Source of the DNA: Raillietiella orientalis
Taxonomy: Eukaryota
Direction of reading: 5' to 3'
Length of the DNA stretch: 64,000 bases
Assembly (NCBI GenBank): GCA_036172245.1
Contig: JAYWIR010000025.1
Coordinates: 496,001 to 560,000 of the forward strand
This document shows positions 3,131 to 62,053 of the stretch, piece by piece (positions within the stretch are counted from its first letter, which is position 1; every line of letters starts with the position of its first letter). The translations under genes and the position numbers were made by a program. Below the pieces are notes generated by a model, which saw only the letters and a program-made list of their open reading frames with translations, had not been told where the DNA came from and did no database searches.

Positions 3131-3285
3131 GAGAGGGTGCTGGGGTTTCTGCACCCTTCGTCTTCGCGGACACGGGCCATTGTGGATCGGCACTCGAGTT
3201 GCTCATGGTAACCCGAATGTGCGCTTCGGTGCTTCCTTTGAGGACAGCTGGGAGCAGCTGGCCACGGGGGTGCTGCTGCTCGTAA
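3131..3285. repeat. Dispersed direct repeat, copy 1 (~155 bp)
   Basis: ggagagggtgctggggtttctgcacccttcgtcttcgcggacacgg...gaatgtgcgcttcggtgcttcctttgaggacagctg...tgctgctc aligns by eye with 4452-4622. Confidence 0.85.
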
Positions 3286-10244: not shown

Positions 10245-11209
10245 ATGGTCTTCGATAAGGTCAGTTGGCCTCCGCTCCTGGGGAAGAGGGAAACGACGGG
10301 TGGGGCTGGACCTGAGCGCGCTTCACCCGCCTCTCCTCTTCCCTCGACCCTTCCCTCCCCCCCCCCCCCCCCCCAGCCTCCTTCGTGCCGTCCGCGGAGG
10401 CGGCGCGCTCGGTGGCAAGACGAAGTGGGGGTTGGCCGCCTTCCCCCCTCTCCTGGATGACGTCCTCCTTCCGTTCCAGCTCCTGGTGCTCTCGTTGCTC
10501 GCCTCCGCCGCCCTGGCCGCGAGGACCTACAAGGCCAAGCCCCCCTACCCGGTGTACAAGTCCGACTACGCGGCCTACAAGCCGGTACCCAAGAGCGACT
10601 ACGTGCCTGCCGAGTACAGCCCGGACTATCCGGCATACAAGCCCGCAGCAGCGTACAAGCCGGACTACCCCAAGCCGGATTACAAGGACGACTACGCCCA
10701 GAAGCCCTACAAGCCCAGCTACCCCGCCGCGAGCAAGGTCGCCTACAAGCCGGCATACAAGGACGCCTACTCCTACGAGAAGGACTACTACGTGAGCGTG
10801 GGGGAGGGAAGCAGGATGGGTGGAGTCGGGTGGAGGGGGCGGGGCGGGTCTTGGCCAGCAACCTTCTAGAGGGATGCATCGCCTCCTTCCTCCCTTGCAG
10901 GACCCGCCCAAATACGACTTCGAGTACAGCGTCAAGGACGACTACTCCTACAACAACTTCGGACACTCGGAGTCCCGTGATGGGGACTACACCGAGGGCA
11001 CCTACCACGTTGCCCTTCCCAACGGCCTCATCCAGACGGTCACCTACAAGGCCGGCGACCACGGGTACGTGGCCGACGTCCAGTATTCCGGAGAGCTGGT
11101 GTACGACAAGCCGCACAAATACGAGGCCGCATACGACAAACCCCACAATTACGAGCCTGCGTACCCCAAGACACCCTACGCCCCTTACAAAATTTACGAA
11201 GCCAAATGA
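10245..11209 (+). CDS. Cuticular protein with Rebers-Riddiford (RR-2-like) chitin-binding domain, 3 exons, ~211 aa
   Basis: Exons 10245-10259 (MVFDK|gtcagt), 10480-10791 (cag|LLVLSLLASAALA signal peptide, then YKP/PDY repeats, ...KDYY|gtgagc) and 10901-11209 (cag|DPPKYDFEYSVKDDYSYNNFGHSESRDGDYTEGTYHVALPNGLIQTVTYKAGDHGYVADVQYSG...EAK*). Both introns are GT-AG, phase 0. A tiny first exon splitting the signal peptide is typical of arthropod cuticle genes. Confidence 0.93.
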
Positions 11210-11799
11210 GCTGCTATCCGCCCCAGGGCAGAGGGGGAAGGCGGCTCGTCGTGGATGGCATCCGAGAAGGCAGCGTTTCCGCGGAAACGGAAAAATTCCG
11301 AGTGGTGTTTCCGCGGAACGTGACCAAAATGATGATAAAAATAATAAAAAAAAAAAAGATAGGTAGTTCGATGAATGGGTGGGTGGACTGGTGGATGCCC
11401 GCTCGTAAAGGAGCGATTTTCTCTGCATTCTCCCCTCGCTTCGGGCACAGGGCTGAGAGGGAGGGGCGAGGCCGAGAGGAGGGAAGGAAAAAAAAAAAAA
11501 GGCCATCTTGGAGGCGACAAATCCTTCCGGCCGTATTTCAGTCGACCTGCGGCTCGTCTCAGTCTCCAGGGGACGCGGTGTAGCGATCAGTCGCCCGGCG
11601 GACAGGGCGCCCGCTACTCTCAGAAGAGGTGACCGACCAGGACCTCGTCACGAGGGAAATGGAGGAACCGGGTTTGGAGTACCGGCGAACCCTTCCCTCC
11701 CACTCCCAGGCGGCTGCCTCAGAGAGGGAGAGATGGATTCGCCGGTGTTGTCGCGAGAAGGGAGGATGCCCGGAGGCATCCTCTCTTTTCGCGATAGCC

Positions 11800-26789: not shown

Positions 26790-29037
26790 TCAGTCCTTCT
26801 TCAGCATCAGCTCCAAGAATTCCTCCCTGGTCCTGGGGTCCTCCTGGAAGGTCCCGAGCATGCAGGACGTTACCGTGTTGCTGTTGACCTTCTGCACGCC
26901 CCTCATCACCATGCACATGTGGCTGGAAGGCAGGGCGTGGGAGAGGTCTCTCAAGAGGGGCGGTCGCCCCTCCCCCTCCCGGACGGCATCCCTACCTACC
27001 TAGCCTCCACGACGACGCCCACTCCCTGTGGCTGGATGGCGTTCACCACCGCCATGGCGATCTGCTTCGTCAGCCTCTCTTGAACTGCACTCAATGGAAG
27101 GTGGGAAGGGCAAGGAAGGGGGGAGGGCGGGAAGAAGGGGGATCGGAGGGGGGGGGGCGCGTCTCAGGAGCCTCGGACCTATTCCCAGAGCACTCACCTT
27201 GCAGGCGCCTGCTGAAGAGCTCCACTATTCTGGAAGAGAGGGGAAACGGCGGGGATGAGTGAGCGGGGCCGAAGGAAGGGATGTGCGGTCCCCCCTCCAA
27301 CCCACTTCCCTCTGGAGCGAGGAGAGCGCGCCCTTGCCTTCACCCCTTTCCGCAGGAGGGCAGGGAGAACCGAGGACGCTCAGGGGTGGAGCGCGTAGCA
27401 CGCGACGGGGGCTTCGAGGAGGGCGGCCCGGACGCACCCGAGGACCCTTGGTGCTCCCCCCCTTTCGTTCCTTGGCTACCCTAGGAGCGCCCAGCAACCA
27501 CTGAGCGGCCCTCCCTCCTCCTGTGGCCCCCCAGTGGAAGAAAGGTTGGAGGGACAACTCACGAGCAACCTTCCCCCTCCCTCCTTCCTTCCTTGGGATT
27601 CTCCCGCCCCACCGGAAATCGTCCCCATCCGAGTCACCTCGAAACAGAGACCCTTCCCTCCTCTCGGGAAGCTTTCCGCTTTGCGAGCAGAGCTCGTTCA
27701 AAGGAGAGATCCGGGAGATCGGCTCCAGGGACTCGCGCAGGATCCACTGAGGCATCATGAGGGGAGAAGAGAGGAGGACACTCTCGGAGAGACCACTTCC
27801 TCCCCGTCCCACCCTAACCCCTTCCCGAGCAGAAGCGCGCGCCTCCCCCGCGCTCGCGCTGCCACCGTGAAAATAGCGAGGGCTGGAAGAAAGCGAACAC
27901 GAAGGAGGAGGCATAGCTCCCGGAAGGAGTTGTGTCCCCCTTTCCGCCTCCTCCCTCCTCTCCCGTCTCATCACAAGAGAAGGGAGGAGGGGAAGAGAAT
28001 GAGAAAAGGAGGAGGAGGAAGAGGAAGAGGAAGGAGGAGACGAGGAGAAATGGAAGGGGAGGAAGAGGAGGAAAGAGGAAGGAAGGAGAAGAGGGCGAAA
28101 CACTCGAGGACGGGGACGGAGGCCGCAGCGTGCGGAGGATCAACCTGTACGGAGCACACCCCGCCGCGGAGGACCACGGGCCTCGCATGAAGGCGCCACC
28201 AACCTGGCCAGCTTGCTTATCCCGAGGATGCGTTTCCGTGGCAAATAGCCGATGGCCACCCTGCCGATGATGGGCACCAGGTGGTGCTCGCACATAGAGA
28301 ACATGTCGATGTTCTTGACGATGACCATCTCTTCGTGATCCTCTCGGAAGATGGCGTTGTTCAGGATGCCTGCAAGGCGAGCGGAGGGGAGAGGAGAAGC
28401 GATGTGCCTCTGGACAGCAGGAGGAGGAGGATGTTGGTCCGACGGGCTCCTTGTCGCGCTTGGAAACCCCTACTCATTCGAGGAGGGAGGGAGGAAGAGT
28501 GGTAGCTCACAGGGGGGGGAATCGCGAGGTGGCCCCTCTGCGCCGAGCGGTAGGGAGTAGAGGCACGCCTTCGGCAGCACCAGGATCGTATGCTCCCGGG
28601 TACCAACTTCCTTCCCCTGGGAGGAGGAGAAAGACTTCTAGCCGTGCGGCAGTTCCTCTCCTCGTTCGCCTCTGGGTGGGAAAGGAGGCTTCGTTCTTCC
28701 CCTTCCCTGGGTGAAAGGGAAGCGGCCATGCGCTTTTCCGGGACCCCGCTTAGTCGTCCGTCGGTGTCCACTCGCGAGGGTCTTCTTCCCCACTCCCCTC
28801 CCTTGCGCCCCCTCGGAGGAAAGGGGCGGGACGGCCGACTACCTTGAAGGCTCTGCTTGTAGCCTTTCATGAAGAAGAGCATCGCGTTCGCGGCCCTCTC
28901 TGGCGTCTTCAATAGTCCCTCCCTGTTGGCGTCCTCGCCGATGTGCTTCAGGATCTCCCTGTAGGTGTCGGCGAGCAGGGACATGGTCGTGGGCTCTGTG
29001 TGGCACATGCGTGCCTCTGTGGCAGTGACGGCAGCAT
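26790..29037 (-). CDS. GCH1: GTP cyclohydrolase I (Punch orthologue), five core exons
   Basis: Minus-strand exons 29037-28843 (...[55 protein letters not shown]), 28369-28204 ([56 protein letters not shown]), 27229-27198 ([10 protein letters not shown]), 27084-27000 ([28 protein letters not shown]), 26922-26790 ([44 protein letters not shown]). All introns are GT-AG with compatible phases; Zn ligands in CEHH and HMCM are intact. An in-frame ATG lies at 29008, but a strong acceptor at 29040-29038 implies an upstream exon. Confidence 0.96.
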
Positions 29038-40299: not shown

Positions 40300-41610
40300 C
40301 AACAAAGTAGTGGTAGCATGAAGAGGGATCGGGAATTCCGGATGGTCCTGAAGACAAAGAGAAGGCAACTCTGTTACTGGGACTGAGGCAGCAGGCAGCC
40401 AGCTTGACGAACTTAAGACCACACTGCATTTCATCCATTCCTGGCAATAGGAAGGTTTGTGGTGTTAGGGAAATGTCAGATCGAAAGACCAGTCTCAATA
40501 GCAGGGTACTCAAGAAAGGAACGAAGGGTAGTCTCATCTCTTGTAGAGCAAAATTTTCAAGAATTACCAGATCCTGCTTCAAACGTTAATTTCCGATATT
40601 GTTTCGGCATTGCTGGCGACTACCGCCTAGGTCCTTGGACTTTAGGCTCTGCTGTCCATTTGACCTGAAGACCCCGTCTGGTGTCCGGTGCTAATGCATT
40701 GAAAGAGTAGAATGTGTTCACATTTCTCGCTCCCTTAGCATCTTAGTTGGCCTGCGGTGCTGAACTCACTTTCTTCCCAACGAGAACCTCAACGTCAGCA
40801 CGCTCAAGAGCAAAGTACAAAGAGGCCACCCCTTCGCCACAGCGGTGTCCTCCGCTGTCGAGGTACATGGCACTTGCCTACCGGCGAAGTGGGAGGTTTC
40901 TTGCGAGATCTCGGCCCGCAGGAAGCCTATCGGTGGCTGGACTACGCGTCAGCTGGCTGACGCAGCAACAACAAGAACAGGCTCTAAAGGACTGGAACGT
41001 TGGGGCGAACTCTTCTCCATTCAGCCTGAAGAGTTGGAAGTGCCCCCCGTGTTTCTAGATAGGAAGCTGCTTCTCCTCAAGTGGCAGCAATTGGCGCTGC
41101 TGATACTGCACTGCGGTCTTCCGTGCAATGCGCACCGGCACTACTGTAAGAGAGGAAGCGCATCGCCGAACTGTGCCAGGTGCGCAGAGGAGACCATCCC
41201 CCACCTCATAATGCAGTGTGCCACCCTCGGGGGCTTGTGGGAACGTTTCTCTGCGTCCCTTCCTCACCCCGTGGTCGAACCCAGAAATTCTTTGAGGCCT
41301 CTCTTCGTGCGGGACGCCATGACGCCCGCGGCCGCAATCGCAGCGCTGTGCTGCGTCCGCGGTGTCGCCGCGTCGAAGTGCGACGCCGAGGGAGGCCGAA
41401 GCGAAGGGGGGGCTGTCCTGCACGCCATCCGCTTCCTGCAGATAGCATTGAGATGGCCCCACCTGCAAAGGGAGAAGGAGGAGCTCGCCGGCATCCTTCA
41501 ACGGACACAGAAGCCTCACCCATCATGAAACGTGATCCCTTTCCTTCCCCCCAACTAACTTTTGTTTTGTTTTGTTTTTGTTGCTTGTTATAGTTTGTTT
41601 CCATTTTCTA
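40300..41610 (+). mobile_element. 5'-truncated L1/Tx1-clade LINE (C-terminal ORF2 with zf-RVT finger)
   Basis: C-terminal CCHC finger CARCAEETIPHLIMQC followed by LW at ~41172-41240, preceded by LILHCGLP. Upstream VSIAG...RVVSSLV (cf. LSIAGKxxVxxSL). The ORF ends at 41528, followed by a T-rich tract. Confidence 0.7.
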
Positions 41611-48380: not shown

Positions 48381-50430
48381 CAAGAGACCACGATGCTCCA
48401 AACACCTTACGTCGCTGAAAGATCACCACCAGTCCTTCCTCCTTCTGCTTGACACCTTCCGTGTGCTAAGAGGATCCAGTTTGAGAAGCCGGACACCTGA
48501 CCGAGGGTCCCCGTCATAAAGAGGGGAGGCATCTGTAGCCGCCGCAGCGCGCCATCTTGGAGGATTCCCCCTGCCGATGAGCTCCTCCTGACGTCGGGAT
48601 CACCTTTCCGATGCGGGAGGGTTTTTTGCTGCTCGCATCTGCATCCTGAATGCAACTCCGCGGGCTCCCTGTTCCGCGGATGATGCGGGGCAGCGGTTTT
48701 TTATGTTTACACGCGGTCGTAATGGAAAAGCGACGGCATTCTGACGTGCCGAGCCTCGCTCGATTCTCCGGCAGGACCTGGAGACAGGCCCATTTTCGCC
48801 CCTGTGCGTCCCGCCTACCTTTTGCGGTGCACTCGTGGTCTCCACCTTTTTGTCGGGGTGCTAAGAGGTTTCGCAGCGCGCGCCGTTCGGCTAATTTGAA
48901 AATGAAAAAAAGAATCTAAAACTAGAATGATTGGAGTCTAAAACGACAGTCCAGGAGCATCTCCGAATCCTCCAGAAATACCATCTGGATCCCTTTTGGC
49001 CCGGTTAGTCTTTGCAGGTATCGGGCCGGAAAACGAGGAGGCGAGGAGGCCTGTGCGAGCGCGCCTTCAGTTCGTGCCCTCCCCTGCTGGTCCAGAGCGG
49101 AAGCTGGCCCCGAGTTCCCAGACGTGATCTTTGGAAAGCATCAAAGGCGGATCGAGCCCAGGGAAAACGAGCCCGCGCGGAACGCAGGGAGCAACCACGG
49201 AGCAGGATGATCCAGGACGGCGCGCGGCCTGTTGCCAAGCCATCATCTCTCCCTCCACCCTTACTCAACTGGCATGGAGTCCGCACGCTTCGCTGCAGTC
49301 CGTGACGACAACAGTCGCTTGAAAGTGAAAGTGTCCCCCTCCCCCACCTACTCCGCGAAGGGAGGCGGAGGCGTTTCCCTTCTCCGAGGTGCGCGCACTT
49401 GTACACCGCCGAAGCTGCCCACGTGCTCTTCGCCTCGGAGACGTGGCACCACGGGATCGACCGTTCGCTGCTTCTCTTCTCTTTTTTCCCTTTTTTAGGA
49501 AGAAAAAATCCTTCGCGAAAATCCCATACGCCGCTACGAAAAAAATCATCTTGGAGGAACTTCTGAGCTTTCTGACCGCAGGACGCATCCCACAGAAGAG
49601 CTTATCCAACTGGAGCGAAATCCAGAGTCAGCGTACTCGGAGAAAGTACCTTGAAGCGGAGCTGCTGCCACTGTTGTGTGTGTTTGTTTTTTTGTTTCAC
49701 TACGTCATCGGGATCCTTGCCGGCATAGGCGAAATATAAATAGAGAGGAAAACTTTCCCTTCAAGTTTAGAGCGGCTGCACGCTCTTTCCCAGCATGGTA
49801 CCGGATGCAGACAACGATGCAACAACACCCGCAGCTCAGAGATGACCTCGCTTGGAGGAGGCTCCGCACCGGAAAGCACGTCTGCGGGGTCTTTCTGGCG
49901 GAGAAGCCAGGCCGCGCTTCCCCTCCCCCTTCTCCCCCTCGCCCTGCACATCTCGGAGCTCGCAGCCCTCCCTGAGGCAGGGCAGGGGCGGAACCTAAGG
50001 AAACCAGCGTCCCAGCTTCTTCGGCAGCTGCATCCGAGGATCCTGCAGGAGTGGCTCCTCGCCGTGGAGACTGCCGTTGTTGCTGGAGGCTTCCGCGCGC
50101 AACGAGCACTGGCACGTGGGACGCGAGAAGCCGGGAACCCCTCCCCTTCCGACCGGAGCGTAGAGCCCTCCGCTGGAGAGCGGCCCGTCGAGACGCGCGG
50201 TCAGCGGGAGGGAATTTTCGCTCTCCAATGCTCCCAGCCGACGAGCGTTAGGGAGCGGACCCGAAGCCCCTCGGCGCAGGTCCCGAATACCATCCGGCGG
50301 CGGTGCCCGCATCCGGGTAGAGGCAGGCTCTGCACACTCTCCCTGAGGGCATCCGGGAGATGAAAACGGCTGCCCTTTATTGGCAGGTTTCCAAAGTGCC
50401 GCCGGATCCTGCCGTCGTCGTCTGGGGCCT

Positions 50431-52725
50431 TCAAGGAAGGAGAGACGCGTCCTCGACGAGCTCCTCCAAGATGGAACGGTACCGCTCTTCGACCAGCCAC
50501 CGGTTCCTTGTGCGTCCGGCCGTCATGCTGTCGATGGGAGTGGGCGTCAACCCGAGGGCTCTGGGCACTTCGTGTTCCTTGAGGAGGTGGAAGTGCATTT
50601 GGAACCACACGTCTTCCAGAACGGCCGCGGCCGCCTTCGGGCTGGCGGAGATCTCTGAGACGGTCATGTCGCGGAAGCGTTCTGCCCTCCTCAGCTCCGC
50701 GTAGTCGGGGTAGACGAGCGCCACCGGGTGCCGGCGGAGAGGGTGCGAGTGGACCAGGGCCTGGACGACGAGGGCACATTCGCTCTCCATGAGGTCTTCC
50801 ACGCGTCCCGGGAAGAACCACTCGCCCTGCGCCATCTTAAAGCTCCCGTCCTTCCTGCTCCCGGACACCTCCAAGACGCCTCCCTCCGAAACGCGCGCCG
50901 TGTCTCCCGTGCGGAGGAAGCCGTCACGGCCGACGAGCCTACGCAGAGCACACCGCCCCGGTGGGCCCCAGAGTCCCTTGGCCTTCCCCACGGGGACGAC
51001 GCAGTGGCGGGCGACGTTCGTCCCACGGACGCAGACCTCCCCGGACGTCACCTCGACGGGGTCGCCGCCAGCGGCCTCCGCCGCCACTCCCTCCTCGGAC
51101 CTTCGGGCCAGGAGCTTCACCTTGCTGCAGGGCAGGGGTGCTCCGACGTGGTCCGGGGCGTTGTCCCCGGGGAAGGTGAGGGTGCAGCAGCCGCTGGTCT
51201 CTGCCGTGCCGTAGAACCGCAGCACGAAGCAGTTCATGACTGCCCGGACGAAGGTCACCACGGAGCCGTTGACCTCCGCCCCGCCCAGGAGGATCAGTCT
51301 GACCCGGCCCCCGAAGGACAGGCGGATCTTCCTGAAGAGGAAGAAGTCCGCCGGAGTGCCTCCGCGGACCAGGCGGCACCTGCTTAGGTGGCCGATTTTG
51401 TAGGCGAAGGCGGCGGCATGCAGCCACCTCCGCACGGGGGCGCCGGCCAGCCACCTCTGCATGGCGTCGTACAGCCGGTTGAAGAGATCGGGCACCGCCA
51501 GCAGGACGGTCGGTCTGACCAACCGCACGTCTCTCAGGATCTCCTCCTCCTGCTCGTCCTCCCCCGGTCCGAGGTCGCGGCGGAACGCCACCCGGCCTCC
51601 ACCCAGCAGGACGCTCAGCTGCCACAGCAGCTCCGCGGAGTGGCCCCGGTGCAGGTAGGCGAAGTAGACGTCGTCCCCGGACAGCGGGCAATGCTGCCTC
51701 AAGCGGTCCGCCACGGAAGCGGCCGCTGCCAGCAGGTTGACGCCCGTCAGTAGAACTCCCCTCAGCCCGCCCCCGGCGTCACGCTTGAAGAGGCACGCGT
51801 GGGGGTCGTCCAGAAACCGGCGGCCGGTGTGGAGGCGGGTCGGCTTCCCATCCCTCGCCGCGTACCCTTCGCCCAGATCCTGCAGTTCCTGCATGGAGTG
51901 GACCCTCACGGAGCGCAGGCGTGCCAGCTTCAAGAGTGAGTCCTCCGGGTCGGACACAGTGACCAGGAAACGGAGGCTCTTCGGCCGGAAGTTCACCAGG
52001 AACAGGCAGGTGCGCCCGCCCTCCGCGACGAGGCACCGCATCTTCGTCAGGTCGCACACCCGGAGGGCGTCCCCGGGATTGAGGTGGTCGTGCACGGGGA
52101 CGAGCACCAGCCCCAGCATGCTGACCGCGCGCTCGGCTACCGAGAAGGCCAGCGAGTTGCGGGTGCAGACGCCCATGAAGCGGGACGAACCTCGCCGCAG
52201 TGGGCGCGTCCTCTGCACCCCACCGACCTTCAGCAGTCCGGCGGCCAGTCTCGCTGCCAGTCTCTCGAACTCGGCTAGGGAAACGCCCCGCTCGGGCCCC
52301 CCGGGACCGGCCACCTGGCTGAACGCGGGTGCCTCTTCCGACCCTCTCCGCCGGAATCTGATCACGTCCCAGAGGCTGCGCGGGGCTTCCGGCATCCCGG
52401 TCGTCACCTCCGCGACTGCGGCCGCTCCCGCGTCGGCGACGCCTCCGCCGTCCACGAGTAGCTCGCCGGGAACGTCTCCGACATGCACCGCGACCCGCGA
52501 CTCCGGGGACAAACGCACGGTGCTCCACAAAACGACCGCAAACCACAGGCTCGCGCACAGCGTGCCCAGGCAGCAGGACGCGGCCGACAGCTCCAGGTAC
52601 TCGTCCAGGATCCTCTCTGCATAGTCCATGACCACGTCCCATAGCTGGTCTACGATCACTTTGGAAACCACAGTGTCCACAGTGTCTACGACTACAGTGT
52701 CTTCTTCGTCTTCTTCGGCCTCCAT
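50431..52725 (-). CDS. Divergent long-chain fatty acyl-CoA synthetase (ACSL)-like protein, uninterrupted ORF, 764 aa; P-loop degenerate
   Basis: Intact ORF with strong GC3 bias. ACSL landmarks DDVYFAYL, VRPTVLLAVPDLFNRLYD, FRKIRLSFGGRVRLIL, FYGTAETSG, HVGAPLPCSKVKL, GEVCVRGTNV, DGFLRTGD, FKMAQGEW. Hydrophobic segment near the N-terminus. Confidence 0.9.
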   Translation of the reverse strand: MEAEEDEEDTVVVDTVDTVVSKVIVDQLWDVVMDYAERILDEYLELSAASCCLGTLCASLWFAVVLWSTVRLSPESRVAVHVGDVPGELLVDGGGVADAGAAAVAEVTTGMPEAPRSLWDVIRFRRRGSEEAPAFSQVAGPGGPERGVSLAEFERLAARLAAGLLKVGGVQRTRPLRRGSSRFMGVCTRNSLAFSVAERAVSMLGLVLVPVHDHLNPGDALRVCDLTKMRCLVAEGGRTCLFLVNFRPKSLRFLVTVSDPEDSLLKLARLRSVRVHSMQELQDLGEGYAARDGKPTRLHTGRRFLDDPHACLFKRDAGGGLRGVLLTGVNLLAAAASVADRLRQHCPLSGDDVYFAYLHRGHSAELLWQLSVLLGGGRVAFRRDLGPGEDEQEEEILRDVRLVRPTVLLAVPDLFNRLYDAMQRWLAGAPVRRWLHAAAFAYKIGHLSRCRLVRGGTPADFFLFRKIRLSFGGRVRLILLGGAEVNGSVVTFVRAVMNCFVLRFYGTAETSGCCTLTFPGDNAPDHVGAPLPCSKVKLLARRSEEGVAAEAAGGDPVEVTSGEVCVRGTNVARHCVVPVGKAKGLWGPPGRCALRRLVGRDGFLRTGDTARVSEGGVLEVSGSRKDGSFKMAQGEWFFPGRVEDLMESECALVVQALVHSHPLRRHPVALVYPDYAELRRAERFRDMTVSEISASPKAAAAVLEDVWFQMHFHLLKEHEVPRALGLTPTPIDSMTAGRTRNRWLVEERYRSILEELVEDASLLP

Positions 52726-54475
52726 TCTTCTTCTTGTTTTTTTTTTTTTTTGTCTACCACACTGCTCGAGTCAGGTGCTGAGTGGAACTACAGAACTTTC
52801 GAGAACTCTCTCGGGAGCCCCGGCACAGGCGGGCGACTCTCCAAGGCGCCCAATTCCGCGGAAGAAACTCAGACATTCAGAGTGTCCCTCGAACAGGGGT
52901 CTCCTAGCAACCTGGCTTACGATGCCGTCTGCGGCTTCGGCCAGCCACAGTAGCGGTGGGCGTTGATACTCTCCTGAGAAGGTGGCACGAGTTGCCCACG
53001 ACCACCTCCTCGGCGGAACGAGGCTGATGCTGCACCGACGTGCGCCTTGCCCGGCGGCGAACAGCGGCATCCCTCGAGCGCACGTCTTCCCAGCCGCTAG
53101 GAGGCACCGCGACGTTTCCTTTCGCGGGCAGCGAGGTAGAAGAAGGAGGTCTAGGGGACAGGGGAGTTGCTGGTCCGGGGTCCCTTTCCAGGGCGGCTAC
53201 GCGGGGGCCATGCGCGGCTGGCCTCTCTCGCGCGCGCGCGAGCAATTGGGGGGGGGGGGGGGGGGGCTAGCGGGAAAACGGGAAAGATGTAAAGACGGCC
53301 AGAAGCGAGAACAAGAAGGGAACAAGGATACCCCCGGCGCTCTCTGCGACCCGCCTTACCGGGGTGGTAGCACCAAAGACCACCAGGCTCTCCACCCAGT
53401 TCGGAGAACTCGTCCCGGAAGACGGGGCGACTCCTGAAAGAAAGAGGAAGGGGGAGGAGTGGGTCCCGGGGAATCCAGGCAGGGAATGCAGAGGGAGCGC
53501 TTTGCTCGTAGGTGGCGCCGTCTTTAGGGATGGCGCGTGGGGAGGAAGCCACGAGGGCAGAGTTCTCTGAGCCTCCATCTCACTGTCCATCCCATCTACC
53601 CTTCTCCCGGGTGGGTAGCGGTCGCATCGCCTTCCAGGTTCCCTGGTGACCAGTTGCAAGATGAAAGCACCTTCCGCTTGCGGGACGCTTCGTTGCTCAG
53701 CAGCCACTCCGAGCAGCGAGATGCGTCGAGTGTCGTACGGAGCAAGAGCAGGAGGGGGAGAGGGAAGAAGAAAAGTGAAGTTTGCTCTCATGGAGGGGTC
53801 GATCCGGAACCGAAACTGGACTCCAAACGAATGCGATGCCGTTGCCATAGAAGCATGGATTCGTATGTTCTCTTCCCTTCTGACTCAGCCTGGCTCTCTC
53901 TGGCACGGTTCCGTGCGTCCTGGTTGCGCCCGGAGCTGCTGCTCCTCGAGAGGGTCTGCTTTCGTGACGCATCGTCGTTCCCGCCACTTTCCTGATTCGA
54001 CCAACGAACCAAGCAGAAGGGTATCCCCCCCCCCTTGCAGGGGAGCCAACTGCCTCCACGCGCGCGCCGGCTGAAGCAGACCCCGCCACCTGCCACCTCG
54101 CTGCCGGTAGCGGGCGCCTCCCGTTTTGCGCGGGACCTCCTGGTTTTCCGACCTCTGGCGTTTCCGCGTCGACTAGCCTGCAAGCGAGTTGGGGTCTCGC
54201 CAGTAGCATCCAGCTCTGGGGGTGGAGATTGGGGAAGGGGGACGCGGTCCAGATTCCCCCTCCAAATCCTCCCACTTTTCCTTCCTTCTCCTCCCCCTCC
54301 GTCTTCTCATGACGTCCCGACTTCCCGTAGTGGCTCCCGCAGGAAAAAAGGCGGAGTTCTCAGCACCCTCTTTTACTTGAGGAGGAGGAGGGAACGGGGG
54401 TCCCGCCCCCTCCCTCCGTTCCTTCTTCCCGGCTGCTCGAGCTGCTGCTCCGCCTCCAGGGTCTTTTCCCAATCC

Positions 54476-56716
54476 TCAGAGGACGCCCTCCAGGCCCTTG
54501 GCGGTGCCTACCTTATGTATGAGCTCACTGAGCTCGCTCCTATAGGTGTCGATGACGGCGTTTCTGGGCCGTAGGGCGAGCAGTCCGGTGCCTATGCCGT
54601 ACAGAGGCTTGGGCACCAGCTTGATGGCCTTGGGTATCTCGTAGCTCTTCAGCGAGTAGGTCCTGGAGGCGTAGGCGATCTCCTCGAAGACTATGTCATG
54701 GGCGATGGGGTCGTTGGCGAGCTCCTCCTTGGAGATGTCGCGCAGGGACGAGCCCCCCACGGAGCGGATGACCCCGTAATCCGGGAAGATCAGAGCCACG
54801 ACCATGGACTGGTACCTTTCCGTGTACAGCAGCACCTGCGAGATGGTGCGGCAGCGCTTCTCCAGGATGCCCTCCACACGGGAGGGCACGAGCCACTCCC
54901 CCTGGGCTAGCTTGATGTTCTCGTCGGCACGGCCCACCACCTGGAGCGTCCCGTTGGCCAAGATCCTGCCCAGGTCGCCGGTGGGGAACGAGTCGCCCGA
55001 GGCGTGGCTGACGCCAAACTGGGCGCTGTAGGCCACGTTGGTGATGGTGGCACCGGATACGCTGATCTCGCCCACGGGGCTGTGGGCCTTGCCGGGCTCG
55101 ATCGCAGGTTCCATGTGGCCGTAGGCGCCCACGTCCACCAGGTTAACGAAGTTCCCCGGTACGGGGACTCCCACGCTCTCCGCCATGTGGTCGCCCGGGT
55201 AGGTCATGGTGCAGACGCCGCTGCTCGTGGACGTCCCGTAGGACACCAGCACGGGACACCCCATGTAGCACCGGGTGAAGGTCAGCACGTCGGCATTGAT
55301 GTACGCCCCGTACACCACCATAACCCGGACGCGGTTGCCGAACCGCCCCCGCAGCTTGCGGAAGAGGATGCGGTCCCAGATGGTGTCGCGGTTGATGATG
55401 CCTCGGGACAGGTAGCGTACCTTGCTGCTGATACCCAGCCTGCTGACCTGGTTCATGGTCATCTTGTCCTCGAGGATCACCTGCACCTTGTCGTAGATGC
55501 GGTTGAGGATGGCGGGCACCACGAGCACCACGGTCGGGCGCAGGACCTTCATGTCCTCCAGGAGCTCGCGGTTGTTACTCGTGCAGAAGGCCACGGCTCC
55601 TCTCTTCATCAGGATGGCCGCCTGCCAGGACAGGTCGACCGCGTGGCGCCGGGGCAGGTAGGAGAAGTACACGTCGTGGTCGGTCATCGCGTGGTTGTCT
55701 AGGTGCAGGTTGATGCTGGAGGCGGCTGACAGGACGTGCGAGTGGCGGAGGATGACTCCTTCCAGCTGACCCGGGACGCGCTCGTTGAAGAGCAGCATGG
55801 CGTGCTGCGACGACCGCAGGCGCGGGAAGCGGTTCGGGTCCAGCGTCCGCCTCTCTCCCAGGGAGAGCACCTCTTCGAAGCTGCGCAAGCGCACGAACTT
55901 GCGGCGGGCAATGCCCACCAGCGTCTGCGAGGGCTCGAAGGTGCAGATGACGCTCCGGATGGTGCGCGCGGGGTACTGCAGCAGGAAGCGCGCCTTGTGG
56001 TGGTCATCGGTCACGATGACGCGCATGCTCGTCCGCTGCAGCATCCGCCGCAGCTCCACGAACCCGAAGGCGTCGTAGACGGGCACGAAGACGAAGCCCA
56101 TGGAGTAACAGGAGTACTCGACCACGGCCAGCTCCAGCGAGGGTCGCGCGTAGCAACCCAGGTAGATATGGCGCCCCGGGCGGTATCCCATCGACGACAG
56201 CCCGGAGCAGAAGAGTAACACCATCCTCTGCACGTCCTCGTAGCTGTGCCAGTAGGGCTGGTAAGCGTTGGGGGGCGGGGGGCGGAAGCCCATGGCAGGG
56301 GAGCTCGGGGGAGCACTGGCGTTGAAGATCAGGTCCCTCAGCGTGGTCACGTTCTCATCTAGGCTCTCCGGAAGCTTCTGCGTTCGAGGGAACACAAGGG
56401 AAGACATCGAGTGGGGTATCCCGGGCACCTCCTCGCTCTGCTTGGCCAGAGACACTCCCGCAGGCAGCGTCGTGGGGAAACCCACCGACCACGCGTATGT
56501 GAACGCCCCCGTGGCGAATCCGCTCAAAAACACCAACCATACCGCCCTCCTGCTGCCCAGGTAGCCAATTAGCATGCGCCGTAGGGCGTCCATATCCACG
56601 TCGGCGACCACCGTCTGCGCATCGGAGCCTTCCGGCAGTAGTAGCAGCAGCGGCAGGGTCAACACGTAAGCCCGCAGCACGCCCCGGAAGCGTGCTGCGG
56701 CGGCGGCGGCGCCCAT
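54476..56716 (-). CDS. Divergent ACSL-like protein, uninterrupted ORF, ~746 aa; P-loop degenerate
   Basis: Likely start ATG at 56716 (MGAAAAAARF...), just after an acceptor-like ccctccag; the ORF track extends to 56848. Landmarks WHSYEDV, VPVYDAFG, DVYFSYLP, LLEDMKVLRPTVVLVVPAILNRIYDKV, IWDRILFRKLRGRFGNRVR, SVGVPVP, TGDLGR, IKLAQGEWLVPSRVE, LKSYEIPKAIKL. Confidence 0.92.
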   Translation of the reverse strand: MGAAAAAARFRGVLRAYVLTLPLLLLLPEGSDAQTVVADVDMDALRRMLIGYLGSRRAVWLVFLSGFATGAFTYAWSVGFPTTLPAGVSLAKQSEEVPGIPHSMSSLVFPRTQKLPESLDENVTTLRDLIFNASAPPSSPAMGFRPPPPNAYQPYWHSYEDVQRMVLLFCSGLSSMGYRPGRHIYLGCYARPSLELAVVEYSCYSMGFVFVPVYDAFGFVELRRMLQRTSMRVIVTDDHHKARFLLQYPARTIRSVICTFEPSQTLVGIARRKFVRLRSFEEVLSLGERRTLDPNRFPRLRSSQHAMLLFNERVPGQLEGVILRHSHVLSAASSINLHLDNHAMTDHDVYFSYLPRRHAVDLSWQAAILMKRGAVAFCTSNNRELLEDMKVLRPTVVLVVPAILNRIYDKVQVILEDKMTMNQVSRLGISSKVRYLSRGIINRDTIWDRILFRKLRGRFGNRVRVMVVYGAYINADVLTFTRCYMGCPVLVSYGTSTSSGVCTMTYPGDHMAESVGVPVPGNFVNLVDVGAYGHMEPAIEPGKAHSPVGEISVSGATITNVAYSAQFGVSHASGDSFPTGDLGRILANGTLQVVGRADENIKLAQGEWLVPSRVEGILEKRCRTISQVLLYTERYQSMVVALIFPDYGVIRSVGGSSLRDISKEELANDPIAHDIVFEEIAYASRTYSLKSYEIPKAIKLVPKPLYGIGTGLLALRPRNAVIDTYRSELSELIHKVGTAKGLEGVL

Positions 56717-59700
56717 CGGTAGGGAGGGTCTGCGGGACGCCTGGAGGGGATGGAGGTGAGGAAGGGTAGGGGTAGGGGGAAGAAGACGCCTCTCTTCTGC
56801 TCTTTCCCTCCCTCTCGCGCTCACCAGGCGAGACGAGGGTTCGTGCAAAGAAGGGGCAGCTGGCCGACCCTCTCACGAGCCAAACAACAAAGAGCCTGTC
56901 TCCCAGGTAACCGGCATAAGCGAGGGGAAGGGGGAGAAAATGGGGGAGGGGGGGAATTGAGGATAAGAGAGATGGAAGGCACGGAGAAGCGCTCGAGGGT
57001 ACACGACGCGGCTCTCCACCAGTCCCCCTCTCTCCACAGCGGCGACGGTGGGAGGCTTCTCTCCCACCCTCCCTTCCTCGTGCGCTCGGCCTCTCTCGGG
57101 TTGCCAACGACGACGACGACGGGAAGCGAACCCCCCGCCGGCAGCCGCAGGAGTTGGCGCCGCATCGGGGCGCCATCCTGGGAAGCGATGGAAAAGTTCG
57201 CGGCCGTCTGGGAGACGACGGGGAGGAGAACAAGAGGAGGAAACGAGAGAGCGCCCTGCTCCACTCGGGTATGTCTCCTTGCCGCTGCCTCTCCCCCTCC
57301 GGGCCCGCAGGAGACGAGCGGCAGCAGGAGATCGTGAACTCCTCCCCTCCTTTCCTGCCGCCTGCATCATCCTCGCTCGAAACCCCGCAGAGAGCAAGAA
57401 GGAACCTGCTCCCGGTCGAAAAGGCTCCTCCTGCAGCAACACCGGGAAAACGAGCCCGCGCAACCGGGAAGACCGGTAACCCATCTCCGCCCTGGGCGCT
57501 TCCAGGCCGGCAGTAATCCCGGCTCCACCGGAAGGAAGCAGTCTCGAGCCCCACGAACGACCCCCAGTAGGGGAAAGGGTCTCGAGGCGTGGGAGGAAGC
57601 GGCTCCAGGACCTTCACGGTGGGCCTCGCGAGCTAAGAAGGTACCGCCCCAGGCTCTTGGACGCGCGTGCGCCCCTTCTCCACTCCCGGAACGAGGGCGA
57701 AAAGATCGGAAAACGCCCTGTTTCCACGATGCGTCGCAAGGCCTCGACCGCGCCAACGTCCTCCTTTTTCCTTGAGGCAGGAGCGCGGCGTCCTCATCCC
57801 AGGAGAACTGGGAAGAGTGCAGACCCTCCTCCCTGCGAGCTGCGAGTGCGAAGGCGGCCGCCAACGCTCGCGGGGAGAGACCGTGCAAAGGAGGAATGGG
57901 AAGACTCCTGGAGGACTCAACATCCTGCGGGAAAGCCGGGATCATCCTTTTGGAGTCCTAGAGCCCCCTGGGAGTAGTGCGATGGAAAGCCGATTTCCAG
58001 GTAGAGTGGGTACCACTAGCATAGGGCCTCTCGAATCGATCGTGGCCGGAGGGCACCTCTTGGAGAGCCTTGCCACCTGTCGCAAGAGGAAGGGAACGCG
58101 CGCCCTCCAGACCGCGGCTGGCACGGGCGCGCTCTGCTTCCTCCTCCGACTCGGCTCCCGAGGCCCGCCGACGAACGGAACGGCGGTAGGCGAGAAGCTC
58201 GTCTCATTCCCGGAGGACTGCGCTTTCGGGCCATCCCAATCCGAATTAGGGTGCGGAAGTGAAGGAGCGCAGGCTGTCAACTGAACTCGCTGGTCATCTC
58301 GCTAAGGCGCCTCATTTGCTCCACAGAAAGGAGATAAATTGCGTACAGCTGCAAAGCTGCGTGCTGCAGATCCTTACAATCTTCGCGCAATAAAGTTTGA
58401 ATTGGAATAAAGAAGCACCTGTTGAATGACCCTTCAATGAAGCTTCATTCGGCTAAAGTGGATTTAATAATGTGTGGTGAATAGTTATCGTCAGCTTTTC
58501 GGTATTTCTAGGTGTTATGAAGAGACATTTTTTATTTTTATGATAAAAAAAAAATTTGAAATGTTTCACAACTTTTAAATTCGAAACGATGATTTTGGTG
58601 CATTTATTTCAGATTATTTTGACACTCTGGAATCGAGTATGAGTTTTCCTATCTATAAATCTTGCTTGTTTCTGTGCTGCTCATTGTTGAGAATGAACCA
58701 AAAATTCAAGTTTGTCTTTAAAGGCCAGATTAAGTTTAGTTTAACAACTCAAAAATCAATTAATTACTATACAGATGTTTTCTTTTAATTCAAAAAAAAT
58801 ATTGCATTCATTTTAAGTTTTTCATTTTATCATGCTGGTAGGCCTGTTGTTAGCTTTGGGCCTACAATTGCAGTGCATGTTGCGTCGTGCTAACGGTGTG
58901 TTATGCAATGGAAACGATTGTGACTTCTGGGTCTCGGTAATTGTGCTGTTTTGATTGATTTTACGAGTGATACTCATCATTTTGAAAGGCTTTACAAGAT
59001 AAACTGGTAATTATATCGAGTTATGAGTAGGCATTAGTTATAGTTTTTGGAAAGCGTGTGTTATTCGGGCCTGTCTTTTCTTCATAGAGGTTCAGAATTT
59101 CAGGATTTTCTGGTTACGTTTGCAGTTTGCGACTTATTCATTCGAAAGATATGTGTATTATTTTTACTTTAATTCGTAAACTGTGGAAGTGAAGCCATGG
59201 AATACAATCATTGTGTTGCATATGAGAAATCAAATAACACGAGAATAATGAAATTTAGAAGGAAATCATTTTTTGGTGTGAAATGAAGACAGTAAAATGA
59301 GTATTTGAATTCATATCCACATTTGAGCAATGTTGTTTTCAAGATTTCAAATTTTTTTCACAAACCATCAACGTGTTCATGATTCATTAAGGATGTGTGC
59401 ATCCAAATGCCATACATAAGGCATTCCCGTTAGCAGTTTACTGTTCTCACATAGAGCAACTTTCCAATTGTAGATTTCAGAGTATTTCCAGAAAATTAAG
59501 CCCAAATGATAAAAAGTAATACTTGAAACATAGACTGCACTTTGTCAGTTCTGTGGGAAAAATGGCGAATGTAGAGAAATCGAATTTTTTTAACATTTAG
59601 TGTGGTAGCATTGTTAATGGAGAAAAACATATAATGAGCAAATTCATGATTATTTGACCATACTGACAAAAATAATAAAATTCATCTCTTGATAAAGAAC

Positions 59701-60191: not shown

Positions 60192-62053
60192 ATGAAATCA
60201 AGAGTAATTGGTTTGATTGATGTAGACTGCTTCTATGTACAAGTTGAACAAATTGAGCAACCAAACATTAAAGGAAGGCCAGCTGTTGTTGTACAATATA
60301 AAGAACGGAAAGGAGGAGGGTCAGTTTAAAATTTCAACATTGTATATGTAATAATGTGTTTTTGTAGAATTATTGCAGTAAATTATGAAGCCAGATCACA
60401 TGGAATAAAGAATGGCATGTGGGCAGATGATGCAAGGTCAAAGTGCCCAGACCTTCATGTTTTTTGTGTTCCAGAGCAAAGAGGAAAGGCAAATCTGACA
60501 AGGTGATTAGACTCACTTTTCAGAACAAAATGTGAATGTGGTCACCTTGCAGGTATCGAGATAAAGGTGCGCAGTTTATCCAGATTTTGAGCAGGTATTG
60601 CAGTTGTGTGGAAAGAGCAAGTGTAGATGAGGCTTTTCTTGATCTAAGTAATGAAGTAGATCAGATGTCTTTGGAAGTCCTAGATGAAAAAGGATTGTCT
60701 GATACTATCGTTATAGGTTATGAGGATGAAGGTAAAGATTTTGCACTTATGTTTAAGTCTCCTTTAGTATGTAGGATTCACTAATTGGCTTCAGCAGTGC
60801 TCTCCAGAAGATCAGCGATTAACTCTGGCAGCAGTATTGATGCAACAGATTCGTCTTGCTGTTGAGTGTGAGCTGGGATTACAGTGCTCTGGAGGTGTTT
60901 CCCATAATAAGGTGAAATGATGCATTGAAATGAACTTGCCGAGCTTAATGATTCTTAGATGCTAAGTAAATTGGCTTGCAGTTTAAATAAACCCAACCGG
61001 TTAACTGTATTGCCCATGATTTCTGTTCCTGCCCTCTTTGAAAGAGTTCCCATAAAGAAAGTGAGAAATCTAGGTGGGAAGCTAGGGCGGGCAATAGAGC
61101 AAGAACTATCCTGTTCAACTATGCATCAGCTAGCACATGTACCCATGTCCATTTTGTTGCAGCACTTTGAAGAAAGTACAGCGTGAGTGGCAAGCAGAAT
61201 GATCTCTATAATCCTGTATAGAAATTGGTTACTGCAGATAAGTCAGGGATATGATGATGAACCCGTGGTGCAACGATATTTGCCCAAGTCTATTGGGTGC
61301 AGCAAAAATTTTCTGAATCGAGATACCTTGCATAATACAGACCAAATTCAGTTTTGGCTTAGACAGCTCGCTTCGGAATTGTCTGAACGGTTGATTCGGG
61401 ACCAAACTCAGAACAATAGGACTGCAGGATTATTAACTTTATCTGCAGGCTTGCAAAACTGTTCTCATGTGACCCGTTCGATCGCTCTGCTTACATATTC
61501 TGCAGAAAAAATAGCTCAAGATGCATTTCAAGCAACTCAGTCACTCTGTTCTTCTAGTCGTACCATGTAAGTGTCAAAGGGAGCGTTGATGTACAAGCTG
61601 CTTTTGTATCTTGTCAGGTTTCCATGCATCACTCATCTGGGATTGTGTGCATCCAAGTTCAAGTCTATTGACGTTACCAAAGAATCCACTCTTGACTCCT
61701 ATTTCGCGCCTTCCAAAGACTCGTTTTTTCTGAGCAGGCTCAGGCAGGCAGGGGGTGTTTCTGCCGCCGAAAGTGCTGAGGTTTCGGCATTGAAGAAGTG
61801 CCACAAATGCGACAAGTCAGTGCCTGAATCTGAGTGGCAAGAGCATGAAGACTATCACTTTGCCGAAGACGTTCAGCAGCAGTGGCAGAATGAAACCAGA
61901 CAGAGTTACAGCAATCAAATGCTTGCACAGAAAAAACATTCGAAATCTTCCAAACGAAGCAGGCAGCAGTCAGTTGACAAACCCAAAGAGAAGATCAGAA
62001 AAATAACGTCCTTTTTTCCGGTTCAACCCACAGTGCTCGACAGAGTTTCATGA
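60192..62053 (+). CDS. POLH: DNA polymerase eta (Y-family), 7 exons, 527 aa
   Basis: Exons 60192-60319, 60368-60502, 60553-60731, 60775-60911, 60959-61182, 61222-61566, 61618-62053 total 1584 nt; all introns are GT-AG. Motifs IDVDCFYVQVE, GGGIIAVNYEAR, GKANLTRYR, ERASVDEAFLD, CSGGVSHNKMLSKLACSLNKPN, VRNLGGKLG, PKSIGCSKNF; UBZ finger CHKCDKSVPESEWQEHEDYH; PIP-like KITSFF. An acceptor tttcag at ~60177 implies a 5'UTR intron. Confidence 0.96.

Follow-up and report, generated by a model that had tools for sequence, protein, structure and literature searches.

Loss of catalysis in proteins whose fold is retained is already known from pseudoenzymes, from degenerate ANL domains and from families of dead enzymes in sperm, and the nearest precedents for the genes described here are FLD2 of DIP2 and the Drosophila S-Laps. 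FLD2 is an evolutionarily kept ANL domain with degenerate adenylation motifs and no adenylation activity (PMC9342972), while the S-Laps are inactive, testis-specific, structural sperm proteins (PMC6388916, PMC3078892). A search of the open-licence literature, with subscription journals and supplements outside its scope, found no stand-alone full-length dead ACSL family. Here we describe two genes, W1 and W2, in a 64,000-nucleotide stretch of the Raillietiella orientalis genome (contig JAYWIR010000025.1, positions 496,001 to 560,000; hereafter the window), which, judged from their sequences, are very probably selected proteins unable to adenylate and which belong to a family of at least four members.

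W1 (50431..52725) and W2 (54476..56716) are stop-free, intron-free open reading frames on the minus strand of the window, which is free of N, and encode ACSL1/5/6-derived predicted pseudoenzymes of 764 and 746 residues, W1 with an acidic N-terminal extension. Both frames were re-derived and each matches the Pfam AMP-binding domain (PF00501, E 2.8e-36), with 31% identity between the two proteins over 755 columns; the initial annotation was therefore right to describe two full-length ACSL scaffolds that had diverged strongly and yet both stayed open. A frameshift or assembly artefact was considered as the source of their features and rejected. Both proteins have the full-length ACSL-type architecture with closest homology to ACSL1/5/6, and in the tree they are placed within the ACSL1/5/6-type group (support 98/96) against an ACSL3/4-type outgroup. 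A PDB search with W2 gave distant ANL matches and one with W1 alone gave no match; in the ESM Atlas, W2 retrieved exclusively ACSL clusters and W1 unnamed clusters that were uninformative. Membrane anchors are predicted near both N-termini, at residues 48-66 of W1 (52528..52584, minus strand, hydropathy 2.0) and, among the hydrophobic segments of W2 (56489..56689, minus strand), at residues 58-76 with a hydropathy of only 1.3, residues 10-28 being signal-peptide-like by eye. An AATAAA polyadenylation signal lies 49 bp past the W1 stop (50376..50381, minus strand), and downstream of W2 only an AGTAAA variant was found (54372-54377).

The catalytic motifs were assessed in an alignment with 252 canonical relatives (119 hits and their query, these 120 mostly arthropod, together with 132 diverse hits of 560-780 residues). 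Motif roles were taken from a FadD5 preprint and a human FATP2 preprint, the latter reporting that activity was abolished by T225A in the P-loop or K572A in the K-loop and almost abolished by E360A. The P-loop (A3) keeps only one of its eight consensus residues in W1 (51742..51795, minus strand, residues 311-328) and likewise one in W2 (55742..55798, minus strand, residues 307-325); among the relatives, all eight are present in 220 proteins, seven in 23, six in 6 and five in 3. The length of the loop is unchanged in the alignment, so no displaced P-loop is apparent and this possibility was rejected. Neither protein has the complete Tyr-Gly-x-Thr-Glu of A5: W2 (55223..55240, minus strand) keeps Tyr-Gly and has lost both Thr and Glu, the latter replaced by Thr, and W1 (51196..51213, minus strand) keeps Tyr-Gly and Glu and has lost Thr. 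In the A10 regions of W1 (50500..50529, minus strand) and W2 (54560..54586, minus strand) the catalytic Lys is absent, in a register set by sequence alignment only. The A7 Asp and the A8 hinge, with its Arg and Gly-Glu, are retained in W1 (50818..50910, minus strand) and W2 (54893..54982, minus strand), the hinge of W2 reading G-R-x-D instead of D-R-x-K. With coordinates re-mapped, the alignment upholds the motif strings that had been reported at the P-loop, A5 and A10, the absence of the YGxTE Glu from W2 with its implied presence in W1, and the lack of a catalytic Lys in both C-terminal motifs. Failing at A3, A5 and A10 as read from sequence, W1 and W2 should not be annotated as ligases.

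A search of the genome recovered two further intron-free, P-loop-less copies, one of 719 residues on contig C2 (1126-3285 of the extracted C2 stretch, L003, plus strand) and one of 753 residues on contig C43 (1351-3612 of the extracted C43 stretch, L004, minus strand), the latter in AT-rich DNA with A-tracts downstream; a repeat search gave no fifth copy, and these counts are lower bounds. Both additional copies likewise keep a single P-loop consensus residue, and an N-terminal hydrophobic segment is present in all four proteins. In a site-mixture tree of 34 proteins, W1, W2, C2 and C43 form one clade on long branches (support 100/100), in which no sister relationship of W1 to W2 is resolved. 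Independently of the tree, three changes are fixed in all four copies: the P-loop Tyr has become Phe, and the gate/A4 motif has acquired an Arg and a Trp (Arg356 and Trp364 in W2, 55625..55660, minus strand; Arg360 and Trp368 in W1, 51622..51657, minus strand), and both gate residues have a frequency of 0.00 among the 252 relatives. These fixed shared changes suggest that catalysis was lost once, before the duplications. Also invariant across the four copies are the Asp of A7 and the Arg and Gly-Glu of A8; the gate His is kept in three, W2 among them, and a Lys follows the hinge in three, while the adenine pocket and the A5 Glu vary, the Glu being lost in W2 and C43. A recent duplication of W1 and W2 was rejected, as their coding regions share short nucleotide matches only and their flanks are unalignable. 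The two-gene partner system proposed in the initial annotation is thus not shown, the genes being part of a four-member family spread over three contigs.

Four-fold sites are at or near saturation in all six pairs of copies (W1-W2 0.47 vs. 0.39 expected), and second codon positions are still 51-57% identical. W2 keeps 37 of 57 and W1 38 of 59 columns that are at least 95% conserved in the relatives, and at the least conserved columns they keep 14 of 82 and 7 of 72, respectively; saturation at four-fold sites together with this preferential keeping of conserved positions points to old, selected genes. When W2 was subjected to neutral substitution, 2 of 200 frames remained open at 80% protein identity and none of 200 at either 56% or 31%. 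The conserved residue slots are kept unevenly across the family, with 4 of 36 (11%) in the P-loop, 30% in A10, 39-52% in the gate, adenine pocket, A5, A8 and C-domain, and 54-65% in scaffold regions and A7, and retention in the P-loop is lower than in the scaffold, taken without the catalytic motifs and C-domain, in both W2 (Fisher p 0.01) and W1 (p 0.023). Identity among the four copies is 4/54 (7%) in the P-loop vs. 991/3271 (30%) elsewhere. Drift in the P-loop alongside a maintained fold is what marks a pseudoenzyme, and the frames are intact with the scaffold under purifying selection, as estimated from paralogues and not from an orthologue-based ratio of nonsynonymous to synonymous substitution (dN/dS). 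The earlier proposal of selected, non-catalytic pseudoenzymes consequently stands as far as intact, selected ACSL-fold pseudoenzymes are concerned, and any specific role can only be suggested.

The only intron-bearing ACSL1/5/6 gene found in the genome lies on contig C31 (C31:2170700-2204583), with 11 exons and 10 GT-AG introns in its modelled part and hence at least 10. That the four copies have no introns in their coding sequences whereas the C31 gene has 10 suggests retroposition followed by DNA duplication, and the likely parent lineage is that of an ACSL1/5/6 gene interrupted by 10 or more introns. The C31 product shares 7 of 32 family-diagnostic residues, compared with a maximum of 6 and a mean of 1.1 among the 252 others and a mean of 1.7 among 121 relatives as divergent as C31; this sharing points to the C31 lineage as the parent in a manner that is suggestive but not decisive, and a clade of the four copies with C31 is not rejected by the approximately unbiased test (p-AU 0.37). 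A 25-residue form of one N-lobe segment is common to the four copies and C31 and occurs in 99 of the 120 mostly arthropod matches, including the displayed insects and crustaceans, and in 18 of the 132 diverse matches; the displayed spiders and centipede have a 27-residue segment. Examined for a trace of poly(A), the loci showed an A-tract downstream of C43 only. The C31 gene is itself partly degenerate, with the gate His replaced by Phe, the A10 Lys by Arg and 6 of 8 P-loop residues present, and its product is ~41% identical to its best matches. The genome also holds an expanded set of six further ACSL loci with a recognisable P-loop, two in tandem (C60:301000-324700) and four on C1, three clustered and one single (C1:2514000-2542000, 9943400-9945300), which we take to be ACSL3/4-type. 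Given the partial degeneration of the C31 gene, fatty-acid activation in this genome may rest on these six loci.

Orthologues outside this genome were sought with several queries. A protein search with W2 gave 10 matches, all of 21-27% identity and none an orthologue, and the best 150 matches of a four-sequence profile, searched among 1.84 billion representatives, were all canonical-type ACSLs; orthologue fragments scoring below these would be missed. The top profile match is a fused double ACSL prediction with both P-loops intact, and three near-full-length matches without the Thr-Ser-Gly core still have nearly complete P-loops. The search of shorter proteins returned one unrelated fragment and no orthologue, and no orthologue was present in the metagenome contigs searched.

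Upstream of both genes lies a candidate RFX X-box, 186 bp before the W1 ATG (52899..52911, minus strand; second match 53692-53704) and 195 bp before that of W2 (56898..56911, minus strand; second match 57100-57114). These sites fit the restricted Drosophila consensus (PMC2375033), which has a background of 29 of 856 250-bp tiles, these sites included. The C2 copy has a closely related X-box at -384, so that three of the four genes carry one near the start, at -186, -195 and -384, vs. 12 of 1026 background 250-bp tiles; the upstream flanks of W1 and W2 do not align. Two RFX genes are present in the genome. Genome-wide, the X-box type of the window has 1020 sites vs. 216 for the reversed pattern, 189 and 92 for scrambled patterns and 206 for patterns with the wrong spacer (4-5 bp), which indicates a real, spacing-dependent site class with a fivefold enrichment and an excess of ~800 sites. 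As separate observations, the excess X-boxes have an asymmetric right half-site and lie mostly in GC-rich unique DNA with no recognisable coding exon within 1.5 kb; two more near-palindromic X-boxes, at 3198 and 31756 of the window, match both strands; and two near-identical inverted segmental duplications at C1:1.74-1.89 Mb (L065/L066, L067/L068) each carry an X-box.

By analogy with the S-Laps and with RFX2 in spermiogenesis, we give about an even chance to W1 and W2 being proteins without catalysis that are anchored in a membrane, have a structural or lipid-binding role and belong to an RFX-driven programme, most likely that of spermatids. An mRNA retrocopy of an ACSL1/5/6 gene would have lost catalysis, seen a new Arg and a new Trp become fixed in its fatty-acid gate, and duplicated both in tandem, giving W1 and W2, and to two other sites. 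The proteins would fold, sit on the membrane and act without ATP turnover, each perhaps forming a closed lipid- or acyl-CoA-binding body unable to adenylate. The assignment to sperm would draw on the intron-free divergent paralogues, on the S-Laps, on RFX2 in spermiogenesis and on fly Rfx, which is reportedly linked to spermatids. In the mouse, RFX2 controls spermiogenesis (PMC4498915). More tentative is the scenario taken as a whole, in which an ACSL1/5/6 gene became a four-member, ATP-blind, membrane-anchored family whose gate was rebuilt with Arg and Trp and whose members serve in sperm as structural or lipid-holding components, within a programme of ~800 RFX sites apart from the classic cilium genes, the C31 gene itself being without the gate His and A10 Lys.

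Several observations weigh against this spermatid proposal or against steps leading to it. With respect to the family, the clade of four could partly be due to long-branch attraction, the loss of the P-loop falls short of significance when C2 and C43 are tested singly (p 0.069), and the free tree does not join the four copies to C31. With respect to RFX, no X-box was found in the 1.5 kb upstream of the C43 copy, the restricted consensus matches only two of the four genes (background 26 of 528 400-bp tiles), and the tighter patterns were chosen after the sites had been seen. Furthermore, W2 stands head-to-head with a divergently transcribed DNA polymerase eta-like gene (IMS_C and UBZ zinc-finger exons, window 61187-62050, plus strand), to which the W2 X-box could belong, and in the fly a lone X-box does not predict RFX control (PMC2375033). 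The site class does not mark known ciliary genes here, since none of three core genes (B9D1-like, B9D2-like and BBS5, the last an RFX target in Drosophila) has an exact X-box within 1 kb upstream of its first match. Among 28 X-box loci sampled from the 1020 sites (30 extracted, two near-identical duplicates dropped), only 1 of 143 frames had a Pfam match, the frames of control loci not being scanned, which leaves the RFX target set undefined in this genome. Finally, the S-Laps belong to the mitochondrial matrix and the proteins described here have membrane-anchor-like N-termini.

The same sequence features could also be read as those of non-catalytic proteins binding or sensing fatty acids or acyl-CoA in the soma, for instance in sensory or other RFX-expressing neurons, the epidermis or the fat body; we regard this as possible and on the whole unlikely, as four very divergent intron-free copies better fit the testis-retrogene pattern. 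Somatic lipid binding would agree with the retention of the fold, gate His, A7 Asp, A8 Arg and membrane anchor and with a fatty-acid gate in which both new residues, Arg and Trp, are invariant; moreover, FATP2 can trap acyl-CoA in its tunnel (FATP2 preprint) and RFX is active in fly sensory neurons (PMC2375033). An obligate partnership between W1 and W2, or a role for them as regulatory subunits beside an active ACSL (the C31 product, for example), is improbable: their tandem arrangement in one orientation, each with an X-box at a comparable distance, suggests co-expression, and DIP2 keeps a degenerate ANL domain beside an active one (PMC9342972), but two further members stand alone on other contigs and duplication accounts for the tandem position.

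An ATP-independent half-activity through the retained A7/A8 hinge, either acyl transfer from acyl-adenylate or acyl-CoA or hydrolysis, would fit the invariance of the hinge residues in all four copies, the Lys that follows the hinge in three and the gate His kept in three; we consider it equally improbable, because conserved slots are kept no more often in A7/A8 (52-65%) than in regions with a purely structural role (54-64%) and because the adenine pocket and A5 Glu differ from copy to copy. Decaying processed pseudogenes, contamination or horizontal acquisition would fit the very long branches and the lack of an orthologue in any collection searched, but are very unlikely in view of four frames that stay open over 719-764 codons with synonymous divergence saturated. 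In addition, animal genes surround the pair on its 3.0-Mb contig, coding GC tracks the local GC, and the family has the pancrustacean-type segment length in common with the resident ACSL gene.

Other genes and remnants were recognised in and near the window. A GTP cyclohydrolase I gene exon lies at 28364-29008 (minus strand), and a secreted-looking repetitive protein rich in Tyr, Lys, Pro and Asp, cuticle-protein-like by eye, is encoded at ~10500-11400 (plus strand), its scanned frame being without a Pfam match. Of the decayed neighbouring transposons mentioned in the initial annotation, little was recognised: the 94 frames flanking the W1-W2 pair contain one weak transposon-type match, ~9 kb away, to zf-RVT (E 0.004; 40764-41525, plus strand), probably a decayed end of a long interspersed nuclear element. 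Past the end of the window is an immunoglobulin-domain exon (L041:9006-9674, plus strand), which is PTK7/off-track-like.

If the proposed reading is true, the family provides four independent, deeply diverged natural ACSL scaffolds without catalysis and would show roles of the ACSL fold apart from adenylation, such as lipid binding or membrane scaffolding. This is relevant to the question of whether binding or movement of fatty acids by acyl-CoA synthetases can occur with no activation step, and the X-box makes the question of tissue directly testable.

Compared with animal ACSL1/5/6 proteins, the four copies have the same full-length domain order and N-terminal hydrophobic anchor at 25-30% identity, together with the A7/A8 hinge, the A5 Tyr-Gly and many structural Gly, Pro and Asp residues. 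They differ in a randomised P-loop, in the absence of the A10 Lys, in the loss of the A5 Glu from two copies, in the new gate Arg and Trp and in having no introns. With DIP2 FLD2 (PMC9342972) they have in common a kept ANL domain with degenerate adenylation motifs, here predicted from sequence to lack adenylation activity; FLD2, however, is FAAL-like, fused in cis to the active FLD1 and degenerate in A5/A7, whereas this family is stand-alone and ACSL-derived, with A3 and A10 lost and A7 kept. The fly RFX/X-box regulon (PMC2375033, PMC4498915) is matched in that W1 and W2 each have a site fitting the restricted fly consensus less than 200 bp from the ATG, and is not matched by the three classic ciliary targets, which here are without an exact site, so that the regulon in this genome may differ from that of the fly. 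Like the S-Laps (PMC6388916, PMC3078892), the family consists of expanded, lineage-restricted paralogues with intact frames, and in the S-Laps the catalytic residues likewise diverged mostly before the expansion. The S-Laps differ in their M17 fold and in forming mitochondrial paracrystalline material, and the testis expression, inactivity and structural role that have been demonstrated for them are, for W1, W2 and their two relatives, suggested by comparison.

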